From: a virus
Lineage: Duplodnaviria > Caudoviricetes
Strand: one strand, 5' to 3'
IMG/VR virus record: IMGVR_UViG_3300035158_000136
Coordinates: 1-60,442 of that record
Length of the DNA: 60,442 bases
In this document: positions 722 through 44,371 of the stretch, in pieces
Position numbering within the stretch: the stretch's first letter is position 1
How the letters are laid out: every line of letters starts with the position of its first letter
The notes under the pieces: generated by a model
Database searches by the model: none
Told to the model about the DNA's origin: nothing
Seen by the model: the letters and a program-made list of their open reading frames with translations, nothing else
Translations under genes and position numbers: made by a program

Positions 722-1741
722 ATGAGTAGCACGAAAGTTACGAAGTTGGTGGATTTCTCGGATCTGTACCTTGAAGGGAATGTGCGGACTGAAGCGTGTG
801 AAGCGATTCCGCATATGGTGCAGAGTTTGCGGAGAAACGGGTTCAAGCCGAATCATCCGCTTGTCGTGTCTGAGCGGGATGGCCGATTTCTCGTGTTGTG
901 CGGGAATCGCCGGAAGAAGGGATTGGACTGGTTGGCCGAAAATGACGATTCTGAGTATCGTCGCATTCTCGGCGAGTTCAACGGTAAAATCCCTTGTATC
1001 GTTCACAAGGGTTTGACCGAAGAAGAGGAAATTCTGCTTCGTGTCGATCATTCCACCGATGAGGATCGTGTCGGTCTTGACGAATGGAGTCAGTTTTTAG
1101 CGATTAAACAGCTTGTGCGGGCTTTCACGGCTGAATCGCAGGAACGGATTGCAGAGAAACTCGGGATTTTCCACAACAAAGGGAAAAACAAGGGAAAGCC
1201 GAATCGGTCATATGTGCAGACTCGGGTGGATCTGGCGCGTCTGCCGGTTTTCGTGCAGGAAGAGATTAGGAAGCTCATGCAGGAAGGGAAGGATGCAACG
1301 CCTGTGCGGATTAGTGACATTAAGAAACTCAAGACCGTCTACAATGACGAATATGCCGATTATCCCGACGGCGACGGTCCTGAGTTCAAAAAGGCTTGGG
1401 AGGGTATTGTCAATCCTGAGCCGAAGGCCGAATCTGCCGACGGCGATAAGGTGGAACCTGCCGATCTTTCCGTCAAGTCCGCCTTTGAACGTTCTCAGGC
1501 TTGTAGCAGTCGCCTGCTTGGGCGGGTTCTACTGGCTGTGACGAATCAAGGGAAGGATGATCTGGTTGCGCTGGATGCGCAGGTCTTGCAGGCTGAGACG
1601 GATTCGCAGATCCTTGCCGATATTGCCGAATATCTTGGCGAGAACGATTACGCTCAGCTTGTCGATGCTGCCAGAAATGCGCGTGTTGAGCGTGAGGCGC
1701 AGGATGCCGAGAATGCGGAGACTGCCGATTCCGCCGAGTAG
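722..1741 (+). CDS. ParB-like protein 1 (ParB N-terminal/CTPase-like domain + HTH)
   Basis: NVR..., PLVV, LCGNRR (GxxR box), HTH SQERIAEKLG...RSYVQTRVDLARLP. The ATG at 722 follows GGAGAAG. Confidence 0.8.
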   Translation: MSSTKVTKLVDFSDLYLEGNVRTEACEAIPHMVQSLRRNGFKPNHPLVVSERDGRFLVLCGNRRKKGLDWLAENDDSEYRRILGEFNGKIPCIVHKGLTEEEEILLRVDHSTDEDRVGLDEWSQFLAIKQLVRAFTAESQERIAEKLGIFHNKGKNKGKPNRSYVQTRVDLARLPVFVQEEIRKLMQEGKDATPVRISDIKKLKTVYNDEYADYPDGDGPEFKKAWEGIVNPEPKAESADGDKVEPADLSVKSAFERSQACSSRLLGRVLLAVTNQGKDDLVALDAQVLQAETDSQILADIAEYLGENDYAQLVDAARNARVEREAQDAENAETADSAE

Positions 1742-1759
1742 GCCGGATGTGCCGGCATC

Positions 1760-1800
1760 AGGCCGGCTAGTCCGATTATCCGGGCTGGCCGGCCTATTTC
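1760..1800 (+). terminator. GC-rich hairpin after ParB-like gene 1
   Basis: AGGCCGGCTAGTCCG...CGGGCTGGCCGGCCT followed by ATTT; the U-tract is weak. Confidence 0.45.
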
Positions 1801-1821
1801 CGTTTCTACCGATTATTCCGT

Positions 1822-2622: not shown

Positions 2623-2714
2623 CCCGAATCTTGCCCTAGTCCCTTGACCTAGCTTTCCCTTGACCTATCCTTTTATAGTGGACAAGAGAAATCACAAGAC
2701 AAAGGGAAACGAAA

Positions 2715-2798
2715 ATGACGATTATCCTGATTGCTCTGGCCGCTCCGATCGTAGGGATCATTCTGATTAGTTCGACGTTTTCCAGTCCTGCCCGATAG
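2715..2798 (+). CDS. Tiny hydrophobic peptide (27 aa)
   Basis: MTIILIALAAPIVGIILISSTFSSPAR, with a purine-rich leader AAAGGGAAACGAAA. Confidence 0.35.
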   Translation: MTIILIALAAPIVGIILISSTFSSPAR

Positions 2799-3025: not shown

Positions 3026-3060
3026 CCGATACTCCGGGACGTGCCGATTCTGCGGGATAG

Positions 3061-3524: not shown

Positions 3525-3566
3525 TTCTGCGCAACATTTAGTCATTTCTGGGCTATAATAAGGTAG
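3525..3566 (+). promoter_or_regulatory. Phage-type promoter for the packaging/structural operon
   Basis: TTCTGC-GCAACA(3531-3536)-17 bp-TATAAT(3554-3559)-AAGGTAG. The same architecture occurs twice in 37425-37775. Confidence 0.75.
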
Positions 3567-3612
3567 AAGGTGTCTAGAGGGTAGCGACAGAAACTTGCCG
3601 AGATTTGGTATC

Positions 3613-4173
3613 ATGGAACTTGAACGCTGGAAGCATACAGACGGCATCAATGCCCGTTGTGATTTTAATCTCAATGACGGGCAAAGGTGTGGCAACAAGG
3701 CCGCACCCGGCGTTTCCAGATGCCCACTGCACGGAGCCAACAAGCAACAAGCCGCGCAAGAGAACCGAAGCAAACGCCAATACCGGCTTGCAAAATTTCA
3801 ACAGCGCGTTAACGAGTTCGCGGACCATGACCGCCTAAAATATTTGAACGAAGAAATTGGTATCTTAAGGCTCCTTCTTGAGGAGCGTTTGAACGCGTGC
3901 GAAGACTCACATTCAATGATTTTACAATCAGGTCCGATCACGGACCTTGTTGTAAAAATCGAAAAACTTGTGGCGTCGTGCCACAAGTTAGAGTCTCAAC
4001 TTGGCGGTCTATTAAGTAAAGCGCAGATCAAGAATATTGCAGCGAATTGTATGCAAGCGGTTGCGGACGCTGTTGGCGTATTTGCAGAAGAGCAACAACT
4101 AAGTGATGAGCAAGTGGGCAACCTACTCGAAAAGGTAGCCCAAGGTATCCTCGAACACACAGGAGAACTCTAA
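3613..4173 (+). CDS. Putative terminase small subunit (N-terminal Zn-finger, HGGxSTG-like)
   Basis: RC...QRCGNKA...RCPLHG motif followed by helical/coiled-coil sequence. It is the first gene of the packaging operon. Confidence 0.55.
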   Translation: MELERWKHTDGINARCDFNLNDGQRCGNKAAPGVSRCPLHGANKQQAAQENRSKRQYRLAKFQQRVNEFADHDRLKYLNEEIGILRLLLEERLNACEDSHSMILQSGPITDLVVKIEKLVASCHKLESQLGGLLSKAQIKNIAANCMQAVADAVGVFAEEQQLSDEQVGNLLEKVAQGILEHTGEL

Positions 4174-5671: not shown

Positions 5672-6523
5672 ATGGCACTCCGCGGTACGCAACAAATCGT
5701 TGAGGCCGTCGCACTTGGTAGTGAGGGCAAACTCAGGGGAACTCGACAGCAAGTCGAGATTCTGACAGCCGAAGGCGCTGTTGAGGGTGAACTCAGAGCG
5801 ACACAGCAAGTTGTCGAGTCGGCAGCAGGCGGAACAGGCCACCTAAGAGCTTCAAGGCAGCAAGTCGAAGTCATCGCAAAAGACCCGCTTGCGGGTGAGC
5901 TTCGAATCACGAGACAAGCAGCGGAGTACCTTTTTGATGCGGCCGGTGGTGATCTTAGAATCACTCGTCAAGTTGTTCAAGTTCTTGCTGGCATTGCAGA
6001 AGAGGGCCAACTAAGACTGAGCAGACAAGGCGTTGAGGTCATCTCCGCGACAACCAATGGCGTCCTTCGAATTTCAAGACAAAGCCTTGAGATTTTAGCA
6101 GAAGCAATAGGAGGTAATCTCAGAGTTTCACGTCAGGCTGTTGAGTACATCCATGAGCCCGTTGCAGGTGAAATAAGAATCACGAGGCAAGGTGTTCAAT
6201 ATCTTTTCAAAGTCACAGGCGGTGAGCTTCGAGTCACAAGACAAGCAATCGAATATCTTCACAAACATCCATCTCTTGGCACTGCACGTATTTCGAGACA
6301 AAGCGTTCAAGTTTTATTTGGTCCTTCAGTTGAAGGCGCTGCTAGAGTTTCAAGACAGGCGGGTGAAGTCCTTTCGGTAGCATTAGAAGGTGACATGCGG
6401 GTCACGAGACAAGCTGTCGAAGTCCTAAGTGATGCCGCACCACCTACACCAGTCGTGCACGTTGGCCAGTTTCGTCGCCAAAAGCGGCGAAGGATGAAAA
6501 TGCTCCCTCGAAGAGGAAGGTAA
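5672..6523 (+). CDS. Tandem-repeat protein (14 x G-x-LR(I/V)(T/S)RQxVE(V/Y)L), probably virion-associated
   Basis: Repeat of ~18-20 aa; the N-terminus MALRGTQQ is shared with the tail gene at 28433. Confidence 0.8.
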   Translation: MALRGTQQIVEAVALGSEGKLRGTRQQVEILTAEGAVEGELRATQQVVESAAGGTGHLRASRQQVEVIAKDPLAGELRITRQAAEYLFDAAGGDLRITRQVVQVLAGIAEEGQLRLSRQGVEVISATTNGVLRISRQSLEILAEAIGGNLRVSRQAVEYIHEPVAGEIRITRQGVQYLFKVTGGELRVTRQAIEYLHKHPSLGTARISRQSVQVLFGPSVEGAARVSRQAGEVLSVALEGDMRVTRQAVEVLSDAAPPTPVVHVGQFRRQKRRRMKMLPRRGR

Positions 6524-14758: not shown

Positions 14759-15625
14759 ATGCACTTTGATCTTATGCTCAATCGGGCACGTTTTGTTGGT
14801 TTCGATGGTGACGGTGGTGACGGCGGAGCCGGTGGTGGTGACGGCGGAGCCGGCGGTAGCGGTGGTGGCGATGGCGGTGGAGGCGACGGTGGTGCCGGTG
14901 GTGGCAGTGGCAAGACATACACGCAAGAAGAATTTGATTCTCATATGGCCGGTCTTCGCCGGAAGTATGAGGAGCAAGGCAGGCAAACTCAGCGTGAACT
15001 GGCTACCCAACTGGCCGAGGCGAGAAAGAATTCGTCGCTCTCCGAGGAAGAACGGACAACTCTGACCAAGCGAATCGAGGAATTAGAGAATCAATACCTC
15101 ACGGACAAGGAAAAGTCCGATCGAGCAGCGAAAGCAAAGCAGGAGGAATACGACAGTACGGTACAGAACCTCACAACCGAGCGAGATCGCTGGCGTCGTG
15201 ACTTTGAGCACGAGACCGTGAGGAACCTGATTGTCGCTTCTGCTGCGAAGAACAAAGCATGTGATGCGAGTCAAATTGCAGCGATCGTTGGACCGATGAT
15301 TGAGTTCAAAGATGTTGTGGATGATGCTGGACAAAACACTGGCCAAGTCGCTCCCATAGTCAAGTTCCCCGACGTTGACACGGAGAGCGAGAAGCCCATT
15401 ACCATGGAATACTCCGTCGAAGAGGCGGTGAAGCGGATGACCGAACTTCCGCAATACTTCAACCTGTTTGAAGACACCATGAAGTCTGGGCTCGGTGGTC
15501 AGGGTAGTTCAGGAACTCCGAAGGGCAAAATCGACGTGCGAAAGCTCGCTTCGGAAAATCCAGCCGAATATCGGCGGCTGCGTAGAGAGAAACCGGAGCT
15601 TCTCTACGGCAGTATGGAGCGATAG
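14759..15625 (+). CDS. Capsid scaffolding protein
   Basis: Gly/Asp-rich linker, KTYTQEEFD motif and coiled coil; directly upstream of the capsid gene. Confidence 0.8.
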   Translation: MHFDLMLNRARFVGFDGDGGDGGAGGGDGGAGGSGGGDGGGGDGGAGGGSGKTYTQEEFDSHMAGLRRKYEEQGRQTQRELATQLAEARKNSSLSEEERTTLTKRIEELENQYLTDKEKSDRAAKAKQEEYDSTVQNLTTERDRWRRDFEHETVRNLIVASAAKNKACDASQIAAIVGPMIEFKDVVDDAGQNTGQVAPIVKFPDVDTESEKPITMEYSVEEAVKRMTELPQYFNLFEDTMKSGLGGQGSSGTPKGKIDVRKLASENPAEYRRLRREKPELLYGSMER

Positions 15626-25322: not shown

Positions 25323-25340
25323 CCAAAATGGAGAGTGATC

Positions 25341-26372: not shown

Positions 26373-26374
26373 TC

Positions 26375-27403
26375 ATGGCTCTTCTCTGGATTGAAGGCTT
26401 TGAGGCTTTTAACACTGCCGGTAACATTCCTAGCACAATGACTAGGAAATACGCGGCCACCAACCGTGTGAGTAATACACACATTGGTGCTGGTCGTGTA
26501 GCTGGCTTGGCGTGGAAAGCTGATACTAGCGCAGTTCCGTATATCACGACCAAGGATCTTGGCGGTACTATCACTACGATTATCGTAGGATTTGCTTTTA
26601 AAGCTGAGAGACTATCTTCGCAGACGTTTCTGAAATTCTTCGAGACTGGTTCCGTAGCCGGTATGGAATTGCGTCTTAATTCTTCCGGTGCGCTTTCTGT
26701 ATATCGGACGTCAACGCATCTTTCGTCAACGGCCAGTGGTATAATCTCTGCGAATACTTGGTACTATATCGAGTTTAAGTACACTATCAATAACACGACC
26801 GGCAGCTATACACTCAAAGTCAACGAAGAACAACTCATCAATGAGACAAGTAAGGATACGCAGCAAGGTGGCACCGCGGATATTGACGCCGTAAGGTTCC
26901 AAGGAAGTGCTCTTTACCCAGATAACTTTTGGTTCGATGACGTCTACATCTGCGATGACAGCGGCTCCGTCAACAATGATTTTCTTGGGAACTGCCGAGT
27001 CGATGATCTTTTGCCGAATGCGGCTGGTGATCAGACTGATTTTACCCCCAGCGATGGTTCAAACTATGCCGCAATGGATGAAGTGCCGCCCGATGACGAC
27101 ACGACGTATGTTGAATCTTCGACATCCACAGATCAGGATCTCTACAACTACACGTCGATGCCGACGGTGGGTACGATTCATGGCGTCCAGATCAATACGA
27201 TGGTTCGGGAAACCGATGCCTCTGATTTTACACTCAAAACGTTGATCAAGACCGGAACGACGACAAGCGCCGACTCGGCACAGGCGATTGCTGGTCAAAC
27301 CTATGAAGTATTACGCAGGGTCGCAGAGCAAGATCCTGACACATCGTCCGCCTGGACTGAGAGTGGCTTGAATGGTGCTCAATTCGGCCTGGAGGTAGGT
27401 TAA
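26375..27403 (+). CDS. Lectin-like tail protein, paralogue 2
   Basis: Same motif series (NTWYYIEFK, FDDVYI, AQFGLEVG). Confidence 0.7.
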   Translation: MALLWIEGFEAFNTAGNIPSTMTRKYAATNRVSNTHIGAGRVAGLAWKADTSAVPYITTKDLGGTITTIIVGFAFKAERLSSQTFLKFFETGSVAGMELRLNSSGALSVYRTSTHLSSTASGIISANTWYYIEFKYTINNTTGSYTLKVNEEQLINETSKDTQQGGTADIDAVRFQGSALYPDNFWFDDVYICDDSGSVNNDFLGNCRVDDLLPNAAGDQTDFTPSDGSNYAAMDEVPPDDDTTYVESSTSTDQDLYNYTSMPTVGTIHGVQINTMVRETDASDFTLKTLIKTGTTTSADSAQAIAGQTYEVLRRVAEQDPDTSSAWTESGLNGAQFGLEVG

Positions 27404-27405: not shown

Positions 27406-28428
27406 ATGGCTCTTCTCTGGATCGAAGGTTTCGAGGGTTTTGGTACTACTGGTGCGCCGCAAGGCGTAGAAGAGAAGTACCTTGAAACTCATCGAATCAG
27501 CTTCACGGTACTCGACACAGGCCGTTTGGCGGGTTATGCCTGGAAATCAACCACCAGTTCCAATCCGCAAATCACAACAGAGCATCTCGGTGGTGCTTCA
27601 ACTATCGTTGTCGGCTTTGGCTTCAAGGTGAACAGGGTTGTCAGTAACCTCAGTATTTTTGAATTCTATGAGCCAGGCAAAACTTTGGGAATGAATCTCC
27701 AGATCATTGGGGATGAACTCAGAGTTCGACGCGGCAGCACAACTCTTGCCACCACGTCTACGCTCAATCTCCAGGTTGATACTTGGTATTACATCGAGTT
27801 CAAAGTCACAGTCCACAACTCGGCTGGTGCTTACGAACTTCGAGTCGATGAAACAACGGAGTTAAGTGCCTCAAGTATTGATACACAGGCAAGCAGTTTC
27901 GCTCAAATTGATCTTGCAAAATGGATTATGCCGTCGTCTTCTCTTGACCATATGTGGTTTGACGACATTTATATCTTGGACAACTCAGGTTCAAACAATA
28001 ACGATTTCCTTGGGAAGTGTCGTGTTGATGGGATTCTTCCAGACGCTGCCGGTGATCAGACTGATTTTACCCCCAGTGCTGGTGCGAACTACGCGGCAAT
28101 GGATGAAAACCCTGACGATGGCGATACGACTTATGTGGAGTCGGATACAGCGACTGATCAGGATCTCTACAACTACGCTTCAATGCCTGCCAGTATTGGC
28201 GGTGTCAGAGGCGTTCAAATCAATACGCTGGCAAGGTTGACTGACGCAGAGAGTTTCGACCTCAAAACACTTGTCAAGTCTGGAACGACAACGGACGCTG
28301 ATTCAGGTCAACCGGCAACGAACGACTACCGTGTACTGCGACGAATTGTTGAAGAAGATCCTGACACATCTGCACTCTGGACCGAGAGCGGCATCAATGC
28401 GGCCCAATTTGGCCTTGAAGTAGGATAA
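27406..28428 (+). CDS. Lectin-like tail protein, paralogue 3
   Basis: Same motif series (DTWYYIEFK, FDDIYI, AQFGLEVG). Confidence 0.7.
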   Translation: MALLWIEGFEGFGTTGAPQGVEEKYLETHRISFTVLDTGRLAGYAWKSTTSSNPQITTEHLGGASTIVVGFGFKVNRVVSNLSIFEFYEPGKTLGMNLQIIGDELRVRRGSTTLATTSTLNLQVDTWYYIEFKVTVHNSAGAYELRVDETTELSASSIDTQASSFAQIDLAKWIMPSSSLDHMWFDDIYILDNSGSNNNDFLGKCRVDGILPDAAGDQTDFTPSAGANYAAMDENPDDGDTTYVESDTATDQDLYNYASMPASIGGVRGVQINTLARLTDAESFDLKTLVKSGTTTDADSGQPATNDYRVLRRIVEEDPDTSALWTESGINAAQFGLEVG

Positions 28429-34056: not shown

Positions 34057-34607
34057 AGGACATAATCCTCACACAAAGTCACAGCCTGAGCGTGTAAGTC
34101 AGGCAATGAGCCATTGTTGCACACGATGGCATCCCAGTCAGACCATTCATCGAGTTCAGTCTCACGAGGATCATCGTCAAGAGGGCCTTCACGGTCGATT
34201 CTGACCAGAACGCCACCAGCCTCTCGGACGGCGTAACCTTCGTTGCGATAGCCCAAATCTTTGATCAGCAAAACATCGACCCCTTGGTCGGTTTTTGTGA
34301 TGTAGTGTATCCAAGTTGGGCCATAGACTTCACGCATTTTGTTGCCGACGCCGATCCAGAGATCACGTGGTGTTTGGCCGATGGCGGGTAGTACGATTTC
34401 CTTTTCATTGTAGTGAGTCTCGTAGTACACACCACGCTGGAGACCGGCCCAACCGTATAGTTGGTAAGCCACGTCTTTGAGTTTATCCGCAAATCCTACT
34501 TTCCGCACAGTGCAACCATCACAGTTGATCTGAAGATGGTTCAACATGAAGTTGCAGAGAGTGTCTTTGCCACGACTTTTCTTATGTCCAACAGCGACGA
34601 TTTTCAT
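34053..34607 (-). CDS. Deoxynucleoside monophosphate kinase
   Basis: GHKKSRGKDT P-loop, FADKLK, TPRDLW..VG..MRE, D.GYRNE. Confidence 0.85.
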   Translation of the reverse strand: MKIVAVGHKKSRGKDTLCNFMLNHLQINCDGCTVRKVGFADKLKDVAYQLYGWAGLQRGVYYETHYNEKEIVLPAIGQTPRDLWIGVGNKMREVYGPTWIHYITKTDQGVDVLLIKDLGYRNEGYAVREAGGVLVRIDREGPLDDDPRETELDEWSDWDAIVCNNGSLPDLHAQAVTLCEDYVL

Positions 34608-37282
34608 TGTACCAATTTATCTCCATCTAAGACCCAAGGAGTTTCATTGTCTGGTCTCGTTGAGTCCAGACTCACGTTTCCGATATAGAATTTGGCTTTA
34701 TCCTTCATGTTGCGGCCCTTCGGGAATCGCCTCGGCAATTCTCGTCCCACCCGGATTTTGGTCCAGTTGCCCGCTTCCTCAGCGTCAAGCCAATTGAAAA
34801 AGGTTTCCCAAAAGATTTTATACTCAGTCATGGAACCTGGAATGTGGAAACAACATTCCTCAATGAATAATTCCAGAGCGTTCATGTTTTTGCGTGAGGT
34901 TTGTTTCTTTTCTTGCGTCTCTATGATTGGAATACTGAGCCTAGAATTTGACCGCGGTAGCTCAACGGCCATCAACGCACCGAGGAAGTCTGAAGCCTCT
35001 TTTTCCAGAATGCTCATAAGTTGAACTTTAGGAATGAGTTCAGCCTCAGTCAGTGGGCGCATGTGGCACATTGTTATGCGCGTGTCACCTGGGAAGATTG
35101 GACAGTATGATTCATAGTTTGCGCATTGGACCCAGTGTGTAGTGTTAACGATGTGGTAAGGCGTTTGGTTCTTTTTGTGGATTGGCAGAAGCTCGGCCAT
35201 GACCCAATCCTTCATTCGATTCCTGGCCTGCTTATGCTGAGACAAGTCAACTTCTTCCACGACGCAAAGAACGGCGTTTTCAAGTTCGCCGTTGAAAGCT
35301 GAGTTTGAAGTCAAAGCAGCGTCCGCCCGCGTATAACCCTTTGTCATAAGCAGGCTGATTGCTTCGTGAAACGTTGATTTTCCTGTATTTTCCTCCTCTG
35401 AAAAGAAGAATAAATAAGGCAGGTGCTCCGTTGGTTTTTGAAACAACGATGCGACCCATAACTTGAGATACTCACCACCCGTCAGGATGCCATTCGTTTG
35501 GCACCAAGGGTGTTTTTCTATAGTCTTTGTGAGCCCAGCGCCCGCGTGATCGAGAACACGAGTCCAGGTCGGATGTATGAATGGTTCATCCAGTTTGGGT
35601 TTGAACTTCAACTGTGCAGCGCCGCGGTTCCACTGGCGGTCGCCGGGGAATTCGTCTTCAAATGGCTTGTTTACTAACGTCCAGCCGCGCATGACACATT
35701 GACCGAGGATTGTGCTAATCTCACGGTCGTTGAAGTTCAGTGATTTCAAACTCAATTTGACATGGTTCAACGGTTCCGTTTGCCAACCACCGCCAGCGTT
35801 GATGACCCAGCCAAAGTCATCACCACCGTCTGTGATCAAGTGACGAACAACGTCGTCATAATTGCCCGTTTCAGGTTCAGTGACCGGCGTAACTTTGGTA
35901 TTATAGATACGTTTCCACCAACCTTTGTCTTCGCGCCATCCTGACATATCACCACCATTATCTTGGGATTCGCGTTTGACCTCAACGATCAAACGGCCAT
36001 CCTTTTTGTGATGTTTCAGGATAGTACGACGACCGGCTGCCCACGGCGGTAGACTAACATTTGCTCCGAGCGACGTGGCTACGGATTTTGCGACTTCGGC
36101 TTCCGTAAATTCAAAACCGCCTTGTTCAGTTTCAACGCCATCGTGCGAGCGTGAGGCTGTTTTGAGATCCGGTTCTTGATTATAGAAGCAGCGAGTATAA
36201 CCCGTGCCGTCCTGCTCCCATGATGCGTGTTCGCCTACACCTGGGGTGTAACGACGCACGGTCCACGCTCCCTTGCGTAGCGGGAAAGCGAAACAGTTAT
36301 GATCGGCTCCACGTTCCTTGCCTTGTGCGACTGTTTCAAAGATCCCTTTGAGATCAAGCTCAGTATGTGCCTTTTTGAGATCAGCGGTGTGGCAGACCAT
36401 CATCCAGTGATCCTTGTCCCACCACCATTGAGCGTTATTGTCGTCCAAAAATGATTGTAATCTCAAATGCGCACTGTCGAGCTTGATACGCGGGCGCGTG
36501 CCGCATAGTTCCTCGAACTCGTCTATCTCGTCTTGTTCAACGTAACGAGGCAGACATTTGCGACGATTGCCACGAACAACGTCAATGTGATCTTTCCAGT
36601 TGGCTGGAATCTCACGTAAGATGGAACCTTTCTTAATGAGTTTAAGCCCATCGGTGTCCTTCATCTTGCGGTGCCAGACCCACATATTCCCACCGCAGGC
36701 GTCGAGTTTGCTTTGAAAATCAAACCCGGTTTTAGCGGAGAGCATACCGAGAATCGCACGTGCGAGCGCAGCGTGTTCGGTGTGGTTGGCGGTAGCAACC
36801 GACAAGAGAAACGTGTAGAAGTGGATTCCTTTCCCAGACGTTGAGATGCGAACCGTGATCCAAGGAATCGACATAACGGCGTTCTTAACTGCTTCCAGTT
36901 CTTCTGCCGTCAGTCCTTGTTTGTGATTCGCAACAGAGTCAAAGTCGTAAGCAACCCAGATACTCTGTTTCTTGACCCAGTTCCACCCGGTCATTCCAAT
37001 CCCTTCGGCGTGCAAACCCAGAGGCCAAGATTGTTTTTTGGGTTTGTACTCAGGATTGGTCTTTGCTTTGTAGGGAATACGATACGATTTCCAGATTAGA
37101 GCTGGATCGTCAGGATCGGCCCATCCGTTCCATTGGCGGCCTTGGTACTCCCCAGTGATTCTGACACCACCATCTTGGGCGGCATTGACCTGGACTTCCA
37201 TTTCCGCATTATAAAGAGCTGCTAAGTCAGCGTGAGTGTTGGCCTCAAGGAAAACCTTGATAGCCTCGGTCTGCAACGGCAT
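34604..37282 (-). CDS. Primase-helicase (AEP-like N-terminus + SF3/D5-like helicase)
   Basis: DFD and STSGKGIH primase motifs; ENTGKST Walker A, VVEE Walker B, CAN motif C. Confidence 0.85.
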   Translation of the reverse strand: MPLQTEAIKVFLEANTHADLAALYNAEMEVQVNAAQDGGVRITGEYQGRQWNGWADPDDPALIWKSYRIPYKAKTNPEYKPKKQSWPLGLHAEGIGMTGWNWVKKQSIWVAYDFDSVANHKQGLTAEELEAVKNAVMSIPWITVRISTSGKGIHFYTFLLSVATANHTEHAALARAILGMLSAKTGFDFQSKLDACGGNMWVWHRKMKDTDGLKLIKKGSILREIPANWKDHIDVVRGNRRKCLPRYVEQDEIDEFEELCGTRPRIKLDSAHLRLQSFLDDNNAQWWWDKDHWMMVCHTADLKKAHTELDLKGIFETVAQGKERGADHNCFAFPLRKGAWTVRRYTPGVGEHASWEQDGTGYTRCFYNQEPDLKTASRSHDGVETEQGGFEFTEAEVAKSVATSLGANVSLPPWAAGRRTILKHHKKDGRLIVEVKRESQDNGGDMSGWREDKGWWKRIYNTKVTPVTEPETGNYDDVVRHLITDGGDDFGWVINAGGGWQTEPLNHVKLSLKSLNFNDREISTILGQCVMRGWTLVNKPFEDEFPGDRQWNRGAAQLKFKPKLDEPFIHPTWTRVLDHAGAGLTKTIEKHPWCQTNGILTGGEYLKLWVASLFQKPTEHLPYLFFFSEEENTGKSTFHEAISLLMTKGYTRADAALTSNSAFNGELENAVLCVVEEVDLSQHKQARNRMKDWVMAELLPIHKKNQTPYHIVNTTHWVQCANYESYCPIFPGDTRITMCHMRPLTEAELIPKVQLMSILEKEASDFLGALMAVELPRSNSRLSIPIIETQEKKQTSRKNMNALELFIEECCFHIPGSMTEYKIFWETFFNWLDAEEAGNWTKIRVGRELPRRFPKGRNMKDKAKFYIGNVSLDSTRPDNETPWVLDGDKLVQ

Positions 37283-37424
37283 ATTTATCTCCCATCTCCC
37301 GGACCCTACTGATTCTTAACTCAGAACATTAAGGATTGAGTTTGAACTCAGAGGCGAAGATGGGAAATTGAGTTTGAACTCAAGAACTCAAATCAGTGTT
37401 TTATGTGTTTAGATAGAATGGTTG

Positions 37425-37470
37425 TCTAGACTATTATAGCCCAGTTTACACGAATTGTTGCGCAGAATTT
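37425..37470 (-). promoter_or_regulatory. Phage-type promoter driving the primase operon
   Basis: On the minus strand: AAATTCTGC-GCAACA(37461-37456)-17 bp-TATAAT(37438-37433)-AGTCTAG. Confidence 0.75.
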
Positions 37471-37695
37471 TAAGTCCTTTGATAATAACAACTTACGTCG
37501 AATTACAGGTTACATATTTTCTGTATTGCCCGTATGCTTTCAACTCAACTCAATAAAATATATAGCAGTAAGTGGCGCGACATAACCTGTAACTTTGCAC
37601 CTAAGTCCTTTGATAGCAACAACTTACGACGTAACTAAAAACACTAGTCAATTTAACAGGCGACGTAAGTCCTTTGATAGCAACAACTTACGACG
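37471..37695. repeat. Three-copy palindromic repeat array, locus B
   Basis: TAAGTCCTTTGATA(GC/AT)AACAACTTACG at 37471, 37602 and 37666; same unit as 279-430. Confidence 0.95.
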
Positions 37696-37730
37696 ATTCT
37701 TCGCGTTCGTGTATATAATATAATTGAATA

Positions 37731-37775
37731 AAATTCTGCGCAACAATTCGCGATTTTCGGGCTATAATAGAGTAG
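37731..37775 (+). promoter_or_regulatory. Phage-type promoter driving the ParB2/replication operon
   Basis: AAATTCTGC-GCAACA(37740-37745)-17 bp-TATAAT(37763-37768)-AGAGTAG. Confidence 0.75.
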
Positions 37776-37906
37776 CGGGAGGATTTCCATTCAGATGGAA
37801 TTCTGAGTTGAGTTTTTGAAACCGGCAACTTGAGTTCAAACTCAGAAAATGGAAACGACCTCCAAGACGTTTTGAGTTTCTTTTCAATTTCATGGGAGAA
37901 CTAAGT

Positions 37907-38893
37907 ATGAGTGGAACCACAGCAGTAGTTCCCATCTCCGACATTCGACCGAATCCGGTCGCCCTCCGCTCCGTTGATCGAGAGTCCGAAGACTATATCC
38001 AACTCCGGGACTCGATCGCCGATCCTTCGATCGGTATTCTGAACCCCATCAACGTTCGTGAGCGAACCGAAGACGTTGAAGGGACCACCGTTACGTTTTA
38101 CGAGATCATCGACGGCCTGCACCGGTACACGGCTGCTTCTGAGGTTGGACTCAGCGAGATCCCCGTCCTCGTCAAGAATCTTGACGAGACCGAGGCTCAC
38201 TTGGCTCAGATTATCGGCAACGCGATGCGTGTCGAGACGAAGCCGGTCCAGTACACGAAGCACTTGCAGCGCATCATTTCGGCCAACCCGACGTGGACGA
38301 TGGTCGATCTGGCGAATCGTGTTCACCGGAGCCCGACGTGGCTGAGCCAGCGTTTCAACTTGCTCAAGTTGGAGCAGCAGGTCCAGGCTCTCGTTGATGA
38401 AGGCAAGATCGCGGTATCGAACGCCGTTGTGTTGGCGAAGCTGCCTCACGAGGAGCAGATGAACTACATTGACGGTGCGATGTCCATGCCGACGACCGAG
38501 TTCGGCCCGCTCGTGACCACCCGCCTGAAGGAAATCAAGGAAGCCGAGAAGAAGGGTAAGGAAGCGAGCAAGCCTGAGTTCAAACCCACGGTTCGACTTC
38601 GCAAGAAGACCGATATTGAGTCTGAACTCGCCAGCCGCACTGTCGTGTCCTCGCTGGTCGCTGACTGCGACACCAAGGAAGACGCGGCTTACCTCGCCCT
38701 TCAGTGGGTGCTGAATCTTGATCCTGTCAGCGTGCAGGTGCAAGAGGCTGCTTGGAATGAGCGGCGTCAGCGTATCGAGGAAGAGAAGGCCAAGCGGAAG
38801 GCCGAGCGCGAAGAGAAGAAGGCGAAGGAAGCCGCCGAAGCCGCCGCGAAGGCCAAGGAAGAGTACGAGGCCAAGCAGGCAGCGCAAGACTGA
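37907..38893 (+). CDS. ParB-like protein 2 (ParB N-terminal + HTH + Lys/Glu/Ala coiled-coil tail)
   Basis: IRPNP..LR, GILNPINVR, YEIIDGLHRYTAA, GL.EIPV; HTH TMVDLANRVHRSPTWLSQRFNLLKL; strong codon bias. Confidence 0.9.
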   Translation: MSGTTAVVPISDIRPNPVALRSVDRESEDYIQLRDSIADPSIGILNPINVRERTEDVEGTTVTFYEIIDGLHRYTAASEVGLSEIPVLVKNLDETEAHLAQIIGNAMRVETKPVQYTKHLQRIISANPTWTMVDLANRVHRSPTWLSQRFNLLKLEQQVQALVDEGKIAVSNAVVLAKLPHEEQMNYIDGAMSMPTTEFGPLVTTRLKEIKEAEKKGKEASKPEFKPTVRLRKKTDIESELASRTVVSSLVADCDTKEDAAYLALQWVLNLDPVSVQVQEAAWNERRQRIEEEKAKRKAEREEKKAKEAAEAAAKAKEEYEAKQAAQD

Positions 38894-38909
38894 TTTCCAT
38901 CTCCCGGGC

Positions 38910-38953
38910 GCGGCCTGTGCGGCATGATGCCGCGCAGGTCGTTGCTTTTCTTT
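38910..38953 (+). terminator. Rho-independent terminator
   Basis: GGCCTGTGCGGCA-TGA-TGCCGCGCAGGTC followed by a T-rich tract. Confidence 0.75.
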
Positions 38954-39001
38954 GCCGGTTTCATTGGGTTCTTCTTTTAACCTTTCACTTCAGAGGTACA
39001 A

Positions 39002-39676
39002 ATGTCAGAAGACAAAGCTCTCGTTCCTGTTGAGTCTCTTGGTGGTGAAATGATTGCCGCGGATCAGGCGTTGCTGAACGACGTCGCGTCCGGCGGTACG
39101 TTCCTTCCCTATGTTCAATTGTTCACCACGAAGAGCAGTGCCGTCGCTGAGGGTAAAATCAGTGGCGGCAACTACGGTATCGTCCGCGACGGCAACATTA
39201 CTGATCTCGGCAAAGAGATCGATGTTGTCATCTTCGTTGTACGTGCTCGTGCTTTCCAGAAAGAAGAAGACGGCGAAATCACCGTCGTCTACGACACGGC
39301 TGATCCCGAGTACGTTCGTATCAAAGAACTCCAGGCCAGTGGCGTCGTTGGCGCAATGTGCGGCCCCGAGTTCCTTGTCTGGGTTCCTTCCGAGAACGTC
39401 TTTGCTACGCTGTTCTGCGGCTCCAAAACGATGAAGCGTGCGGCCCGCAAGTTCAGTCCGTTCCTCGGTGGAAAGGCGTGCAATCTCAAGTCTCGCCTGA
39501 TCGACAACGGAAAGTACAAGTGGCACGGACCCGTCATCGGTGCTTGTTCCGCGCTCCCCTCCGTTCTCCCCGACCCTGATGCGGTCGAGGATGAGATTCA
39601 GCGTTTCAAGAATCCTCCGAAGCTCAGCCCCGGTGAGAAGGTGGATGACAGCGACAAGGAGGACGTTGAGCGCTGA
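39002..39676 (+). CDS. Putative ssDNA-binding protein
   Basis: FLPYVQL...G.Y pattern, acidic C-terminus, strong codon bias, replication-module context. Confidence 0.5.
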   Translation: MSEDKALVPVESLGGEMIAADQALLNDVASGGTFLPYVQLFTTKSSAVAEGKISGGNYGIVRDGNITDLGKEIDVVIFVVRARAFQKEEDGEITVVYDTADPEYVRIKELQASGVVGAMCGPEFLVWVPSENVFATLFCGSKTMKRAARKFSPFLGGKACNLKSRLIDNGKYKWHGPVIGACSALPSVLPDPDAVEDEIQRFKNPPKLSPGEKVDDSDKEDVER

Positions 39677-40206
39677 TGTATGACGACCGAGTTGCTCCTA
39701 TTGCGTTGACAAATGTTGCTTGGCAACAATATCTACAAGTATGTACGGAGATACTCGGTCGTAGTCCTGCTAGGGGTACTGATGCTTCGCCCTCGAAGTT
39801 ATCCGACCTGGCTAAGTATGCGGCCAGCCTTGCTGAGTTCAAAATCGGTAAGGAAGTGGACGCCAAAGCACAGCTTAGGCGTCCAGGCCCGTATCTTCAG
39901 CATCTGTTCTTCTCGTTCATGGTCCTGAGTTCAAACTCAGTGATCTTGGAAATTGCTGAAAATACGAACCTGGACACTGTTTCAACGAAAGCTGACAAAC
40001 AACGACTTGCAATTGTTTCTGGAAATTTGGGCGAATGGCGACAAGCAGTGCTGACGTGCTGCTCTGAGAATGCACCCAAACGATTGCGTGCGCTGTTCAA
40101 CCAAATCAAAGCTATGTTCGAGAAACTTGGCTTTAGTGATGTTTGGCATGACTATCGGCAGAAATCACTCTCAGATGGAACCTTGATTCTAGAATACAAA
40201 ATATGA
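39676..40206 (+). CDS. Degenerate ThyX-like (flavin-dependent thymidylate synthase fold) protein
   Basis: LQHLFFSF resembles ThyX LEHxxFxF; IVSGNLGEWRQAV...C...A...LRAL resembles TxNxRxWxH; RHRxxSxxxxSxR is absent. Confidence 0.45.
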   Translation: MYDDRVAPIALTNVAWQQYLQVCTEILGRSPARGTDASPSKLSDLAKYAASLAEFKIGKEVDAKAQLRRPGPYLQHLFFSFMVLSSNSVILEIAENTNLDTVSTKADKQRLAIVSGNLGEWRQAVLTCCSENAPKRLRALFNQIKAMFEKLGFSDVWHDYRQKSLSDGTLILEYKI

Positions 40207-42161
40207 AAACAATCGAGACGAAGCTCGCCCTAGGGAAGCGCTGGTTTCCTGTGAAACTGGTGTATGTCGCAGATCGAATCTTCTTTCTCGCAGGATTTAG
40301 TAAAAAGTTAAATGCTGAAATCAAGATGATGGAGGGTCATGCGTACCACGGGTACGAGGGCGCTCCGCATCGTGATTTCGTTCTCAAGACTTTTGGCCGT
40401 GACAAACTCTGGTCCGCAAAGGATACGCAGCATAACGCTTTCCAACTGGCTTATCTTCAGGGTCACAAACCGTATGCCAGGTACAAGCAGGATTTGATTG
40501 AGACCACGATGGTTCGTGATTGTCTCATGAGCCATCAGTGTACCGCAGTACGTTTCTTTCTGACTCGCAAGCAGTGTATCCTAGCTGGCGAAATGGGCGT
40601 CGGCAAAACTCTATCCGAGATCGAGGCTCGCGAACAGGCTGATCCACATGGTTGCTGGTACGTCGCCCCGCGATCTGCTCTGGATGCCGTTGATCTTGAA
40701 CTCAAAAAGTGGAACGCCAGAATTCGACCGGAAATGATGACCGACAGAGGCTTGGTCAAGCGTATCCGGGAACTCGAAGGCATGGACATTGTTCCGCCGC
40801 AGTGGTTGACTCTGGATGAGTCGTCCATGTATAAGAATCCAACGTCGCAACGATCCCAGGCCGCGTACATGATCGCATGTGCAATGCGAGAGTATTGGGG
40901 AGACGATTGCTACATTGTCCTGATGACGGGCTCTCCAGCACCCAAAAGTCCACTGGATTGGTGGATGCAGTGCCACATCGCTCGTCCGGGTTATTTGATT
41001 GAGGGAGATTACAACAAACTACGAAGTCGCTTGGCCGTTGTGGTTGAACGCGATTTTGGTGCTGGTGCGTTTCCGCACATCGAGACATGGAAAGATCGAG
41101 ACGGTATATGTGACGTGTGTGGCAAGGAAGAAGGCGCGCCGGAGCACAATTCTGAGATGGCTCAGTTCTGCGATGACGAAGATGTCGCTATCCATGATTT
41201 CACACTCGCAGTCAATGAGGTTGCAAAATTACACCGCAGAATGAGCGGCCTTGTTCTAACGCAATTCAAGAAAGATTGCGTAGACTTGCCCGACAAGCGT
41301 TATGACAAGATACATCTTGAACCCACGAAGAAGCTCATCCAGATTGCTCGGACTATTGCCTCGACGGCTCCAAGCGTTGCTGAAGCGTTGGTCCGCCTTC
41401 GAACGCTATCTGACGGCTTCCTGTACGACCAGGAGAAGACAGGTGTTGAGACCTGCCCAATTTGCGAGGGCAAAAAGGAAATGATGGATTGGGTTATCAA
41501 ACCCGAGTTTGAACTCAATCTTCCACCGTTGCAACTCGATGAGTCCGAGGATGACTGGCGAGAACGACATTTTGATCGTAAACTCATTGAGTGCATTCGT
41601 TGCAGTGGTAGGGGTGAGGTAGACACGTTCACACGCTTCGCGAAAGAAGTTCAGTGTCCGAAGGAGGATGCCCTACGTGATCTGATTGAGCGACACGCAG
41701 AGGTTGGACGCTTGGTCGTGTACGCAGGATTCACTGGTTCCGTCGATCGCTGCGTCCGAATCTTCGAAGACATGAAGTGGGAAGTCTTCCGTTGGGACGG
41801 CCGTGGGAAGCATTGTTCTATTCCAGATGTCAACCCTCTTGAGTTATTCCAAAGCAATGACAATCGGAACATTGGGTTTGTTGGTCAGCCTGGTGCTGCT
41901 GGTATGGGTCTTACGCTCACTGCGTCGCCTTCGTGTGTGTACTGGTCGAACACTTTTAACGCTGTTGATCGGATACAGAGCGAAGATCGCATTCACCGCG
42001 TTGGTATGGATACTGTACGCGGTGCTACCATTATTGATCTTTTTCATCTACCAACAGATTACCTTGTTTATCAAAACATAGAGGAGAAGAGGGCGAGACA
42101 GGATCTAACAATGGGTATCGACATCTCAATGGCTCAAGTCTTGGAGAGTCTTAATGACTAA
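40203..42161 (+). CDS. SNF2-like SF2 helicase with Zn-finger insertions
   Basis: EMGVGKT, LDES, MTGSP, GMGLTLT, QSEDRIHRVG. Confidence 0.9.
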   Translation: MKTIETKLALGKRWFPVKLVYVADRIFFLAGFSKKLNAEIKMMEGHAYHGYEGAPHRDFVLKTFGRDKLWSAKDTQHNAFQLAYLQGHKPYARYKQDLIETTMVRDCLMSHQCTAVRFFLTRKQCILAGEMGVGKTLSEIEAREQADPHGCWYVAPRSALDAVDLELKKWNARIRPEMMTDRGLVKRIRELEGMDIVPPQWLTLDESSMYKNPTSQRSQAAYMIACAMREYWGDDCYIVLMTGSPAPKSPLDWWMQCHIARPGYLIEGDYNKLRSRLAVVVERDFGAGAFPHIETWKDRDGICDVCGKEEGAPEHNSEMAQFCDDEDVAIHDFTLAVNEVAKLHRRMSGLVLTQFKKDCVDLPDKRYDKIHLEPTKKLIQIARTIASTAPSVAEALVRLRTLSDGFLYDQEKTGVETCPICEGKKEMMDWVIKPEFELNLPPLQLDESEDDWRERHFDRKLIECIRCSGRGEVDTFTRFAKEVQCPKEDALRDLIERHAEVGRLVVYAGFTGSVDRCVRIFEDMKWEVFRWDGRGKHCSIPDVNPLELFQSNDNRNIGFVGQPGAAGMGLTLTASPSCVYWSNTFNAVDRIQSEDRIHRVGMDTVRGATIIDLFHLPTDYLVYQNIEEKRARQDLTMGIDISMAQVLESLND

Positions 42162-43437
42162 GTTCGAGAAACAACACTCCGATGAGCTGGTCGCTGCGGC
42201 AGCGGCCAAAGTTGCAAACGGAATGTCGATAGCTCAGGCAGCGCGTGAAGCTGAGATGCCTGTGTCATCGCTGAGTTACCGCTTGAACAAGATGGGTGTC
42301 TTCAGTAGAGGGGAGACACAAAAGAAGCAAACGAAAGCTGATTTGCCTGAGTCTGAACTCGGAATTGTGAATGAGCTAGAAGGCCGGATTCATCTGATGC
42401 AGGATGAACTCCGTGTCACGAAGGCTCAACTATCCGCAGCTCAAAAGAACCAGATGCTTTTGAAAGCTCTGGGAGAGCAGCTTCAGGAATTGGCACAACC
42501 GATTCCGCCACCATATCCATCCTGGCAGAAGTTAGTCAAAGGCCCTGTTAAGGAATCATGTGCTCTACATTTGAGCGACGGACATCATGATTCTGTGATC
42601 CTACCGCACCGTGTTCAGGATTTGGAGCGTCACGACTTCAATGTAGCAATGGCTCGCGGCGAGAATCTTGTCGATACGGTCTGTGATTTTACCCGCAATC
42701 GGATGGTGGGTTATGAGTTCAATACGCTTTGGGTTTTGGCCTACGGCGACCACACAGGCGGTGAGATTCATCGAGCCGTTGAACACAGTCATTTCGGCAA
42801 CATGATGAGGAATTGTTTGGCGATTGGTCAGTTTCATGCTCAAATGATCCGTGATCTCTCGGAGTGGTTCCCCGAGGTTAAGGTTCTGTATCTGAGTGGC
42901 AACCACGGCCGTCGCAAGGATGTTCGGAAGAAAGATTACCAGGCAGCCTGGGACAGTTGGGATTATCTGATCGCTGAGACATCACGTTCGTATTGCAAGG
43001 ATTTGTGGAACGTTGAATTTTTGATTCCAGACTCATTCTCCGCCGTCATCGAAATCGAAGGATTCTACTTCCACACTTCGCACGGCGATGACATTCGTGG
43101 TTGGGCTGGCGTGCCTTGGTATGGTATTGAACGCAAGACACGCCGACTCATGGCCCTGAACGCCGCCCATGATCGAAGGATCGACTACTACTGTATGGGC
43201 CATTTCCACACGCTCGGAACGCAGCAAGCGTTGAAGGGTGAGACTATAATCAATGGGGCCTGGATCGGGACTGATCCTTATGCCTTTAACAGCTTGGACG
43301 CATACAACGAGCCCATGCAGTTGTTGCATGGCGTCCACGAAAAACGCGGCATGACGTGGCGTTTGCCTATCAAGCTCCGCCGTGAAGTGGAAACACCTGA
43401 GCGTTATAAAGTTTCACTCGCATCGCCAGAGGGTTAA
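42154..43437 (+). CDS. HTH + coiled-coil + calcineurin-like metallophosphoesterase
   Basis: LSDGH, GDH, SGNHGR, HGD, GHFH; N-terminal SIAQAAREAEMPVSSLSYRL HTH. Confidence 0.85.
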   Translation: MTKFEKQHSDELVAAAAAKVANGMSIAQAAREAEMPVSSLSYRLNKMGVFSRGETQKKQTKADLPESELGIVNELEGRIHLMQDELRVTKAQLSAAQKNQMLLKALGEQLQELAQPIPPPYPSWQKLVKGPVKESCALHLSDGHHDSVILPHRVQDLERHDFNVAMARGENLVDTVCDFTRNRMVGYEFNTLWVLAYGDHTGGEIHRAVEHSHFGNMMRNCLAIGQFHAQMIRDLSEWFPEVKVLYLSGNHGRRKDVRKKDYQAAWDSWDYLIAETSRSYCKDLWNVEFLIPDSFSAVIEIEGFYFHTSHGDDIRGWAGVPWYGIERKTRRLMALNAAHDRRIDYYCMGHFHTLGTQQALKGETIINGAWIGTDPYAFNSLDAYNEPMQLLHGVHEKRGMTWRLPIKLRREVETPERYKVSLASPEG

Positions 43438-43438
43438 A

Positions 43439-44371
43439 ATGGACAACAACTATGAAGTACATGAGATTCCGATGGCTGAGATCCATTCGGATCAGGATTT
43501 CAACTGTCGTGGATTTATTGCTCCGATGGATGTTCATTCGCTTGCGAAGGATATTGACCAAAACGGTTTGCAGTTTCCGATCGCCGTGCAGCCAGCCGAA
43601 GAGATTGCGGACGAGTTGCCGGACGGAAAATGTTACAGAATTGTTGCCGGTCACAGACGACACCGTGCTTTTGAGATTCTTCGCAGAGATGTCATTCCGG
43701 CGATGATCAAACGTGGGCTCACGGAGGTTCAAGCTCGGGTGTTCAACCTCAGCGAGAACCTCCAACGGGCCGAACTCAACATTTTGCAGGAGGCGAAGGC
43801 GCTCCTCAAGCTCAAGGAATTGGGTCTTGTGCAGGAAGCGGCTGCGGAAGCTGTTGGGCGCACTCGATCTTGGGTGCAGATTCGATACAATCTGTTAGAA
43901 CTGCCGGAAGTGATTCAGGAGGAAGCTGCCGCGGGTCTTTTGAACCAGGCGCAGATTAAGCAGATTTACGGACTCAAGGGGACATCTGATGACCCGACGA
44001 AGGTACAGGAAGCGCAGTTTGCTGCTGTCCGGGCAATCAAGAATGCTCTGCTTCGTGGTGAGAAGGGAATCAGTGTCGCGAAGAAACCAGAAGCAGACCC
44101 CTACAAGAAGAAGCGACGAGCGAAGAATGAAGTTCAGGACATGATTCACCACATTGGTAAATCCGGTCCCGGCTTTGGCTTCGCTACACGTTGCCTGGCT
44201 TGGGCGAATGGTGAGATCAACACGGCTGAGTTGTATCTCGAAATCAAACACCAATGCCAGGAGATTGGAAAATCTTATGTCATTCCTGTTGCTGCGTTAG
44301 AGCAACAGAGCGCCGAGGTGGCAACTCCAGGCGACTGCAGCGCCCCTCTCTCGACGGAGAGTTGTACCTAG
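43439..44371 (+). CDS. ParB/Spo0J-like protein 3
   Basis: GLQFPIAV, YRIVAGHRRHRA, NLSENLQRAELN; HTH VQEAAAEAVGRTRSWVQIRYNLLELP. Confidence 0.9.
   Translation: MDNNYEVHEIPMAEIHSDQDFNCRGFIAPMDVHSLAKDIDQNGLQFPIAVQPAEEIADELPDGKCYRIVAGHRRHRAFEILRRDVIPAMIKRGLTEVQARVFNLSENLQRAELNILQEAKALLKLKELGLVQEAAAEAVGRTRSWVQIRYNLLELPEVIQEEAAAGLLNQAQIKQIYGLKGTSDDPTKVQEAQFAAVRAIKNALLRGEKGISVAKKPEADPYKKKRRAKNEVQDMIHHIGKSGPGFGFATRCLAWANGEINTAELYLEIKHQCQEIGKSYVIPVAALEQQSAEVATPGDCSAPLSTESCT

Follow-up and report, generated by a model that had tools for sequence, protein, structure and literature searches.

Three ParB-family proteins without ParA and a dispersed palindrome in a lineage of tailed phages

KorB of the IncP-1 plasmid RK2 is a CTPase clamp and global repressor of promoters; it loads at its operator OB, of which RK2 has 12 copies, and can slide as far as 1.5 kb from there (PMC11790492). 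The stretch of DNA analysed here, the entire 60,442-bp IMG/VR record IMGVR_UViG_3300035158_000136 of a tailed phage (hereafter the window), encodes three proteins of the same kind, ParB1, ParB2 and ParB3. Like KorB, they combine an N-terminal ParB (ParB_N) domain with a helix-turn-helix (HTH) domain, they are found on a mobile genome of ~60 kb with a palindrome (here a candidate operator) dispersed in and away from promoters, and all three match KorB structures or sequences; KorB is also autoregulatory, which is here proposed for ParB2 only. KorB differs in having a ParA partner, IncC, together with an IncC-binding peptide, whereas neither a ParA nor such a motif was found here, and in working with the clamp-lockers KorA and TrbA, whereas no KorA-like candidate was identified here. 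The site density is ~5 times higher than that of KorB (58 sites in 60 kb), and there are three paralogues in a phage that is probably lytic.

Noc acts on a cellular chromosome and is, like the proteins described here, independent of ParA: it is a ParB paralogue that arose by duplication and has many dispersed palindromic sites, and the Noc structure 7nfu is the best structural match of the ParB1 and ParB3 models. Noc needs an N-terminal amphipathic helix that targets it to the membrane, whereas ParB2 and ParB3 lack the N-terminal extension for such a helix. Phages P1 and N15 and the actinobacteriophages with ParABS systems also encode ParBs with sites nearby, but they differ in being temperate plasmid-prophages with a ParA and clustered centromere sites. 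The orphan status of Noc is described, and P1 is mentioned, in a survey of orphan ParBs (PMC12704722). According to that survey, ParBs without a ParA motif and outside parAB operons are common and enriched on mobile elements, their Box III is often divergent, and their nucleotide specificity is not predictable from sequence or AlphaFold3. The proteins of the window resemble these orphans in having no parA operon, no ParA-binding motif and, in ParB1 and ParB2, a divergent Box III. They differ in that the phage examples of the survey are mostly fused to DUFs (domains whose function is unknown) or methyltransferases, that its HTH fusions are almost exclusively on plasmids and chromosomes, and that its text, supplements aside, describes no cognate site network or paralogue triplet. 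VirB of Shigella, BisD of ICEclc and ParT of SCP2 are ParB-family proteins with distant-site regulation or CTP-independent action, but each is a single protein with few sites, encoded by a plasmid or an integrative and conjugative element, and ParT still has a ParA. In an environmental virome study, ParB-bearing scaffolds were read as phage-plasmids, with 25 carrying ParB and 13 of these also CbiA (PMC4490671); the results below argue against that reading of ParB for this lineage. A ParB without a ParA in a phage is not new in itself. In the literature searched (supplements aside), no dispersed ParB sites or ParB triplet was described in a lytic phage, and no published description was found of a triplet kept across a large lytic-type lineage, of a site at ~1 per kb that is selected within genes, or of a site and a recognition helix that drift together.

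Three ParB-family proteins and the search for a ParA

The three genes and the hairpins that follow two of them are:

722 to 1741, forward strand: ParB1, a divergent ParB-family protein with an N-terminal ParB fold, an HTH and an acidic helical C-terminus
1760 to 1795, forward strand: terminator-like hairpin after ParB1, 15 pairs, 11 of them G-C
37907 to 38893, forward strand: ParB2, with full ParB_N and HTH, deviant Box II and Box III and a helical C-terminus rich in Lys and Glu
38910 to 38942, forward strand: terminator-like hairpin after ParB2, 15 pairs, 10 of them G-C, with a T-rich tail
43439 to 44371, forward strand: ParB3, a canonical-looking ParB with a conserved four-helix C-terminal region

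An initial annotation made from the sequence had described three divergent ParB-HTH paralogues, a description that holds by sequence thresholds for ParB2 and ParB3 and by a confident predicted fold for ParB1; translation gave the motifs CGNRR and RSYVQTR in ParB1, DGLHR and PTWLSQR in ParB2, and AGHRR and RSWVQIR in ParB3 where they had been reported. ParB2 and ParB3 score above the curated cut-offs of ParB_N (44.1 and 38.2 bits, respectively, vs 26.3) and HTH_ParB (30.5 and 34.0 bits vs 22.6), and both exceed the TIGR00180 score of 58.45 (90.2 and 80.4), above which a ParB is said to have 'canonical organisation' (PMC12704722). Both align over ~180 residues with Spo0J, ParB and Noc and more weakly with KorB chains. 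ParB3 has a canonical Box II (GHRRHRA, the full GxRRxRA) whose residues G71, R73 and R74 are invariant in 25 of 25 sequences, and Box III (ENLQR) in full. Its model (pLDDT, the predicted local distance difference test, 89.5) matches Noc, KorB and ParB structures, with Noc 7nfu the best, and it is ~30% identical to chromosomal ParB and Noc over ~205 columns. In ParB2, GLHR replaces GERR in Box II and GNAMR replaces ENLQR in Box III, and the sequence GLHRYT is invariant in all seven orthologues compared.

ParB1 gave no Pfam match and so lies below the ParB_N cut-off by sequence; its TIGR00180 score is 16.1 bits against the cut-off of 58.45, and its PHROG matches are weak (2.5e-6). It belongs to a family of 114 environmental homologues, and an AlphaFold2 model built from a 36-sequence alignment has a pLDDT of 93.4. 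Foldseek matched this model to Noc 7nfu (E 3.8e-6), KorB 8qa9, ParB 6t1f and Spo0J 1vz0 in alignments of 205-239 columns that span both the N-domain and the HTH. On the strength of the predicted structure, ParB1 is a ParB-family protein, its HTH being assigned by structure only. Box II (GNRR) is invariant in 36 of 36 homologues, while Box III is divergent (D-H-S-x-D-E-D-R). The basic insertion FHNKGKNKGKPN, which had been placed in the HTH turn, is indeed there: it forms a 14-residue loop (148-161) between helices 140-147 and 162-172 of the model, and the homologues keep the loop.

The deviant Box II and Box III of ParB1 and ParB2, together with weak-scoring PHROG labels that include 'ParB-like partition nuclease', raise the alternative that the three are ParB-fold enzymes or scaffolds rather than switches, such as site-specific nickases or nucleases acting at the palindromes, or sulfiredoxin-like or kinase-like proteins; the ParB-CTPase fold can be used without switching (PMC12704722). 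We regard this as improbable, given that in all three the HTH follows the N-terminal domain, as is canonical, and that both domains are covered by the matches to Noc, KorB and ParB, whereas sulfiredoxin (Srx) and SerK match the ParB1 and ParB3 models over the N-domain only (~90-125 columns) and much more weakly (E 5e-4 or weaker). A Pfam search found no fused nuclease domain in any of the three, and ParB3 has GxRRxRA and ENLQR in full. The three C-terminal regions are mutually unrelated in sequence, which argues that the proteins would form separate homodimers rather than the heteromeric clamps that the initial annotation had considered possible.

The triplet appears to be a trait of the lineage. 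A metagenome scan with the ParB2 alignment found 137 relatives, of which 80 loci were kept, and each of the 25 loci that reach at least 8.5 kb past the ParB2 start encodes, on the strand of ParB2 and 4-8 kb downstream of it, an orthologue of ParB3, a count in which some loci duplicate the same contig. ParB1 is ~37-41 kb from ParB2 and is checkable in long records only. Among the related IMG/VR records G001-G009, which were retrieved through ParB2, ParB3 and ParB1, it is present in G002 and G009; ParB1 homologues were also found on contigs of 47,749 and 68,227 bp, and the ParB2 relatives L019 and L061 sit on contigs of equal size. G009 is the most informative relative: at 85,110 bp it is 100% complete according to CheckV, has an 89-nt direct terminal overlap, as is typical of circular assemblies, and encodes all three ParBs. 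Its synteny with the window begins at ParB1, continues across the junction and reaches the replication genes. The co-occurrence of the triplet in related phages, for which the initial annotation had suggested looking, is found in G009.

No ParA was found in the window, in agreement with the initial annotation: it has no match to PF13614 (AAA_31) or PF01656 (CbiA) at E<=1 and no deviant Walker A motif. The window is 62% complete according to CheckV and has no end repeats, and the environmental phages with ParB mentioned above were read as phage-plasmids, so that a classical plasmid-prophage ParABS system with its parA in the missing part of the genome has to be considered. The annotation had proposed a search for parA beyond the window, which was run on the relatives: PF13614 had no match in G001-G009, PF01656 had none in G000-G005 or G009, the records searched with it, and no deviant Walker A was found in G002 or G009; ParM- and TubZ-type NTPases were not searched for. 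Since G009 is complete, syntenic and equipped with all three ParBs but has no ParA-type match, a ParA just outside the window is very unlikely. The motif (L|F|I)G[KR]G(L|F|I), defined as the ParA-binding motif in PMC12704722, is found in none of the three ParBs, longer alternative starts included. In alignments ParB2 and ParB3 begin ~20-25 residues later than Noc and Spo0J (residue 8 of ParB2 aligns to residue 31 and residue 6 of ParB3 to residue 27 of Noc, 7nfu_A), so that the N-terminal peptide region is missing from both.

The plasmid-prophage frame of the initial annotation fares no better on lifestyle. As the annotation had noted, no integrase was found (PF00589); the window also has no match to the resolvase family PF00239, and G009 has neither a tyrosine integrase nor a resolvase. 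Alignments of ParB1 and ParB2 detected no relative among 185,579 species genomes, in a pattern-based scan that is not proof of absence, and the replication module is of the lytic type. The lineage is thus probably lytic or virulent, a judgement made from searches that did not extend to repressors, protelomerase, ParM or TubZ. Taken with the absence of ParA from the complete relative, these results leave the ParABS explanation barely credible.

The suggestion that the proteins hijack a host ParA is not supported either, as the ParA-binding motif is in none of the three and the N-terminal peptide region is missing in ParB2 and ParB3. In a wider form of this idea, the ParBs would recruit host SMC/condensin or host ParA to the phage DNA, or would compete with the host ParB, to which the canonical boxes of ParB3 and its ~30% identity to chromosomal ParB and Noc lend some substance. 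The enriched sites described below are on the phage genome itself (phage DNA alone was examined), and with the motif and the peptide region missing we consider recruitment of host proteins quite improbable.

Two palindrome families and their placement

The initial annotation had noticed two palindrome families as possible cognate sites, and both, here called A and B, are far above chance. What it missed is that family B is a dispersed, lineage-wide site family with about one copy per kb. The site features are:

274 to 434, forward strand: family A cluster 1, three units (274-318, 338-382 and 390-434) upstream of ParB1
635 to 648, forward strand: family B site, 87 bp before ParB1 begins, in the control cassette that ParB1 and ParB2 have in common
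34604 to 37282, reverse strand: primase of the DUF5906 type, divergent from ParB2
37283 to 37906, no strand assigned: divergent control region of primase and ParB2, with sites, units and a promoter-like element
635 to 60085, no strand assigned: dispersed family B sites, 58 in number, with a median spacing of 772 bp and a largest gap of 5.5 kb

The consensus of family B is YTGAKTT-YR-AAMTCAR. With at most two mismatches, TGAGTTCAAACTCA is found at 52 distinct places (58 strand matches) against 0.70 expected, a number that none of 100 shuffles reached; with at most one mismatch in the ten fixed positions, TGA-K-TT-YR-AA-M-TCA gives 58 sites against 1.6 expected. G and T mix freely at position 4, and the flanking Y and R extend the site to a 16-bp palindrome. 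Within coding sequences there are 39 sites, compared with 2.47 +/- 1.20 and a maximum of 5 in 30 synonymous-codon shuffles that keep every protein sequence and the codon usage of each gene fixed, which shows that the word is selected at the DNA level. Non-coding DNA, 10.5% of the window, holds 13 of the 52 sites. Six of these 13 precede a start codon by 24-90 bp, and the genes concerned include ParB1, ParB2 and the major head gene. Four of the six perfect copies are intergenic, three of these upstream of ParB2. Family B clusters upstream of ParB2, but unlike a centromere it also recurs at ~1 per kb over the genome.

This placement is found again in the relatives. With 42 loci lined up at the beginning of ParB2, the 1 kb that precedes it held 0.98 and 0.81 sites per 500 bp per locus; the density elsewhere was mostly 0.04-0.36, apart from a smaller peak (0.56) at +2.0 kb. 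A site lies within 700 bp upstream of ParB2 in 29 of the 42 loci. Typically, a single site falls between -40 and -100, with one to three more between -430 and -640 near the divergent primase. Close relatives keep the word of the window (19 sites in 17.6 kb of L008 and 8 in 6.1 kb of L003). The word of G002 is TGATTTTAAAATCA, with 60 sites against 1.2 expected, and that of G009 is TGAT(T/A)T-TA, with 30 strict sites against 2.5 expected. A de novo search in 44 sequences gave mostly TGAGTT or TGATTT arms with a 2-bp centre. In L088, L084 and L062 the centre is 3 bp long (TGATTT-NNN-AAATCA, present 26 times in 20.8 kb of L088), and L073 has the word TGATAC with the positions kept at -75 and -536 upstream of ParB2. 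The family B site therefore drifts in sequence and spacer among relatives while its position is kept. The three loci with the 3-bp centre also keep their site positions upstream of ParB2 and represent a natural spacer-length switch.

Family A is confined to two places. Its 25-bp core TAAGTCCTTTGATAGCAACAACTTA has six copies, of which three precede ParB1 and the other three are in the primase-ParB2 control region; with at most three mismatches these are six matches against 0 expected. In the control region, family B is represented at 37310, 37337, 37369 and 37831 (three perfect copies) and family A by the units 37457-37501, 37588-37632 and 37652-37696; the promoter-like element is at 37734-37775, and this positional pattern is conserved in relatives. 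ParB1 and ParB2 have a common modular 5' cassette, in which family A units are combined with one family B site and with a leader that has a ribosome-binding site. In 15 of 60 loci, some distant relatives among them, units of the form TAAGTCC-N11-GGACTTA precede ParB2 by 180-470 bp. Four of the six family A copies fold into a hairpin better than shuffles and may act as a structured strand; the other two do not, with their cores intact, which favours a duplex binding site. Downstream of ParB1, a poorly coding stretch has two identical copies (1822-1850 and 2594-2622) of the 29-nt repeat CTGAGTTCAAAATCTTTCCTAGAATCTTG, which begins with a half-palindrome like that of family B.

ParB2 appears to be a stand-alone transcription unit that is highly expressed. 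The terminator that had been assigned to it corresponds to the hairpin at 38910-38942. The claim of strong codon bias stands for the G+C content at third codon positions (GC3), which at 0.73 is the highest of 56 genes (mean 0.53 +/- 0.07; the major head gene is similar), and less so for the effective number of codons (Nc), where ParB2 is only 8th lowest. Of its supposed own promoter, the scan found no consensus sigma-70 sequence, and what remains is a 42-nt promoter-like element (TTCTGCGCAAC...GGGCTATAAT) upstream, present at 37734-37775 and 3525-3566 in copies that are 81% identical. The second copy precedes the gene at 3595-4173, and the sigma-70 consensus scan missed the element. The top GC3 and the stand-alone unit with its terminator-like hairpin fit an abundant DNA-coating or global regulatory protein. 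ParB3 starts 2 nt past the stop of the exonuclease gene and is therefore a member of the replication operon; a tRNA-Glu (anticodon TTC) lies directly downstream at 44552-44625.

Gene content and relatives of the record

The window encodes a large terminase, a portal, a scaffold, a major head protein and a tape measure, as expected of a tailed phage, and a replication set that comprises the DUF5906-type primase, a deoxynucleoside monophosphate kinase, a proofreading-type exonuclease, an SNF2 helicase, a second exonuclease, PolA and a UvrD-type helicase. The PolA reported by the initial annotation is present (PF00476, 2.8e-22). It is apparently split: a 97-aa open reading frame (45115-45408) and a 652-aa open reading frame (45445-47403) match a single PolA gene of 735-759 aa in G002 and G009, which may be a frameshift, an assembly error or a real split. 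Most genes of the window have no family match, and PHROG scans of 20 further genes without assigned function found no regulator, repressor or other partition protein.

There is no close cultured relative among the phage records searched. Neither megablast with positions 37000-45000 nor tblastn with ParB1 matched any of 50,697 phage records, and ParB3, the large terminase and PolA gave matches at 22-36% identity only (22-27% for the terminase and PolA).

Several genes at some distance from the ParBs have repeats or local duplications. Three tandem paralogues of ~340 aa (25335-26372, 26375-27403 and 27406-28428; phrog_2448, no assigned function) match one gene of G009 (25375-26391) and so represent a local triplication in the tail or baseplate region. 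The gene at 5672-6523 contains four copies of a ~50-nt repeat at 5894-6438 and thus encodes an internally repeated protein, with no assigned function. The 5' end of the scaffolding-protein gene (14788-14913) is a repeat rich in GGT and GAC with a 9-bp period, which encodes a low-complexity N-terminus rich in Gly and Asp. Directly past the ParB2 terminator, the gene at 39002-39676 has the second-lowest Nc and a high GC3, which suggest high expression; it has no Pfam or PHROG match, its ESM Atlas neighbours are phage proteins similar to Pam3_Gp34/DUF5895 (score 0.96, TM 0.76), and it is conserved in G002 and G009.

Proposed protein-site pairing and possible roles

From the folds, the site families and their drift we infer which protein reads which site, how the proteins may behave as clamps or with nucleotides, and what they may do for the phage. 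The recognition helix of ParB2 has a Gln (W-x-x-Q-R-L/F) that aligns with the Asn of V-A-N-A-L in Spo0J. This Gln is present in all 21 loci with a family B density of at least 0.24 per kb, and it is replaced by E, G or A in nine loci, seven of which have at most 0.14 sites per kb. On the ParB2 tree the Gln state changes at least three times; L084 and L088, which have the Gln and the spacer-3 word at 0.89-1.25 per kb, are nested in a clade without the Gln and with low density. The helix of ParB2 is also the least constant of the three: its identity is 0.58, compared with 0.50 for the whole protein, while the values are 0.64 and 0.49 for ParB3 and 0.76 and 0.46 for ParB1, and the helices of ParB3 (W-V-Q-[VI]-R-[YF]) and ParB1 (P-N-R-S-x-V-Q-x-R) are far more constant. 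With a drifting site and a drifting ParB2 helix, the simplest pairing is that of ParB2 with family B. Since conservation is seen in family A as well as in the ParB1 and ParB3 helices, we propose that these pair; this is the weakest link of the argument.

Based on these results, we propose that the three ParBs are site-specific DNA binders, probably nucleotide-switched, that act on the phage genome with no ParA and are nearer to KorB on RK2 or Noc on the Bacillus chromosome than to a partition system. ParB2 would bind the 16-bp palindrome YTGAKTT-YR-AAMTCAR, which is densest and perfect in its own promoter region, common to the primase; from these sites it may autoregulate, may control other promoters that have a site 24-90 bp before the start codon, including that of the major head gene, and may load onto or coat the phage DNA. 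ParB1 and ParB3 would act at a conserved site, for which the candidate is the 25-bp core of family A that precedes ParB1 and ParB2. That three ParA-independent, KorB/Noc-like, site-loading ParBs regulate or coat the phage's own DNA in this way has, in our judgement, an even chance of being correct.

A number of observations weigh against parts of this proposal. ParB2 as the binder of family B is suggested by correlation, and the covariation of helix and motif on the tree is not significant (sign test, median p 0.5): among three independent contrasts, about two go the same way, none the opposite way and about one shows no change, which are too few for significance. Two loci are exceptions, L093 with 0.43 sites per kb and no Gln, and L073 with the old word at 0.54 per kb beside its own word, and the helices of ParB1 and ParB3 also differ between GAGTT-type and GATTT-type genomes. 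No palindrome dominates the DNA examined from eight distant relatives that have ParB2 and ParB3. The placement of the coding sites partly reflects what proteins tolerate, as 31 of the 39 share one phase that encodes E-hydrophobic-E/K-hydrophobic. For family A, the strict half-site definition applies to only the 15 of 60 loci given above, and a loose scan has a high background (45 hits vs 29 in one shuffle), so that only hits with 11-bp spacing at -180 to -470 were counted as meaningful. A search for a word conserved across the lineage that could be the ParB3 site gave only words resembling coding segments or relatives of family B. Finally, both acidic residues of Box II and Box III are missing in ParB2, which may therefore not hydrolyse CTP and may not be a switch.

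These points bear on a rival in which the dispersed palindrome is bound by another phage or host protein, for example a global regulator, and the ParBs are only local autoregulators or origin-binding factors. Most genes of the window have no family match, so that another DNA-binding protein could be the binder, and the lack of significant covariation and the eight relatives that keep ParB2 and ParB3 with no detectable family B word both suit this explanation. It accounts less well for the perfect sites and the density peak at the ParB2 gene, with a site in 29 of 42 loci, for the spacer-less 16-bp palindrome of parS-like size, and for the way in which the ParB2 helix Gln tracks the word, including one contrast within a clade. 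We consider binding by another protein unlikely, but as a minority prospect to be taken seriously.

Our proposal of site-loading ParBs that act on the phage DNA can also be taken further, at a considerably lower probability. In this more speculative form, the lineage would mark its genome at intervals of ~1 kb, also within genes, with a private, fast-drifting 16-bp 'identity' palindrome, and the three ParBs without a ParA would divide among them the tasks of loading on, coating and compacting the phage DNA and timing its expression: the dispersed sites would be occupied by ParB2 as an abundant clamp that may be deficient in hydrolysis, and ParB1 and ParB3 would act at the conserved 25-bp element of the ParB and primase control regions. 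If true, this would be a virus-encoded chromosome organiser similar to Noc and KorB that tells self from host DNA.

ParBs are now seen as CTP-switched DNA clamps, and the role of many orphan ParBs of mobile elements is an open question. The lineage described here offers a testable answer, with a defined 16-bp site in about 60-90 copies per genome, natural site variants in sequence and spacer that are paired with ParB2 helix variants, and two further paralogues as internal controls. It also advises caution, in that a ParB on an environmental phage contig need not signal a plasmid-prophage lifestyle, and it could reveal if a virus for which partition is unnecessary has put ParB clamps to a new use in organising or regulating its whole genome.

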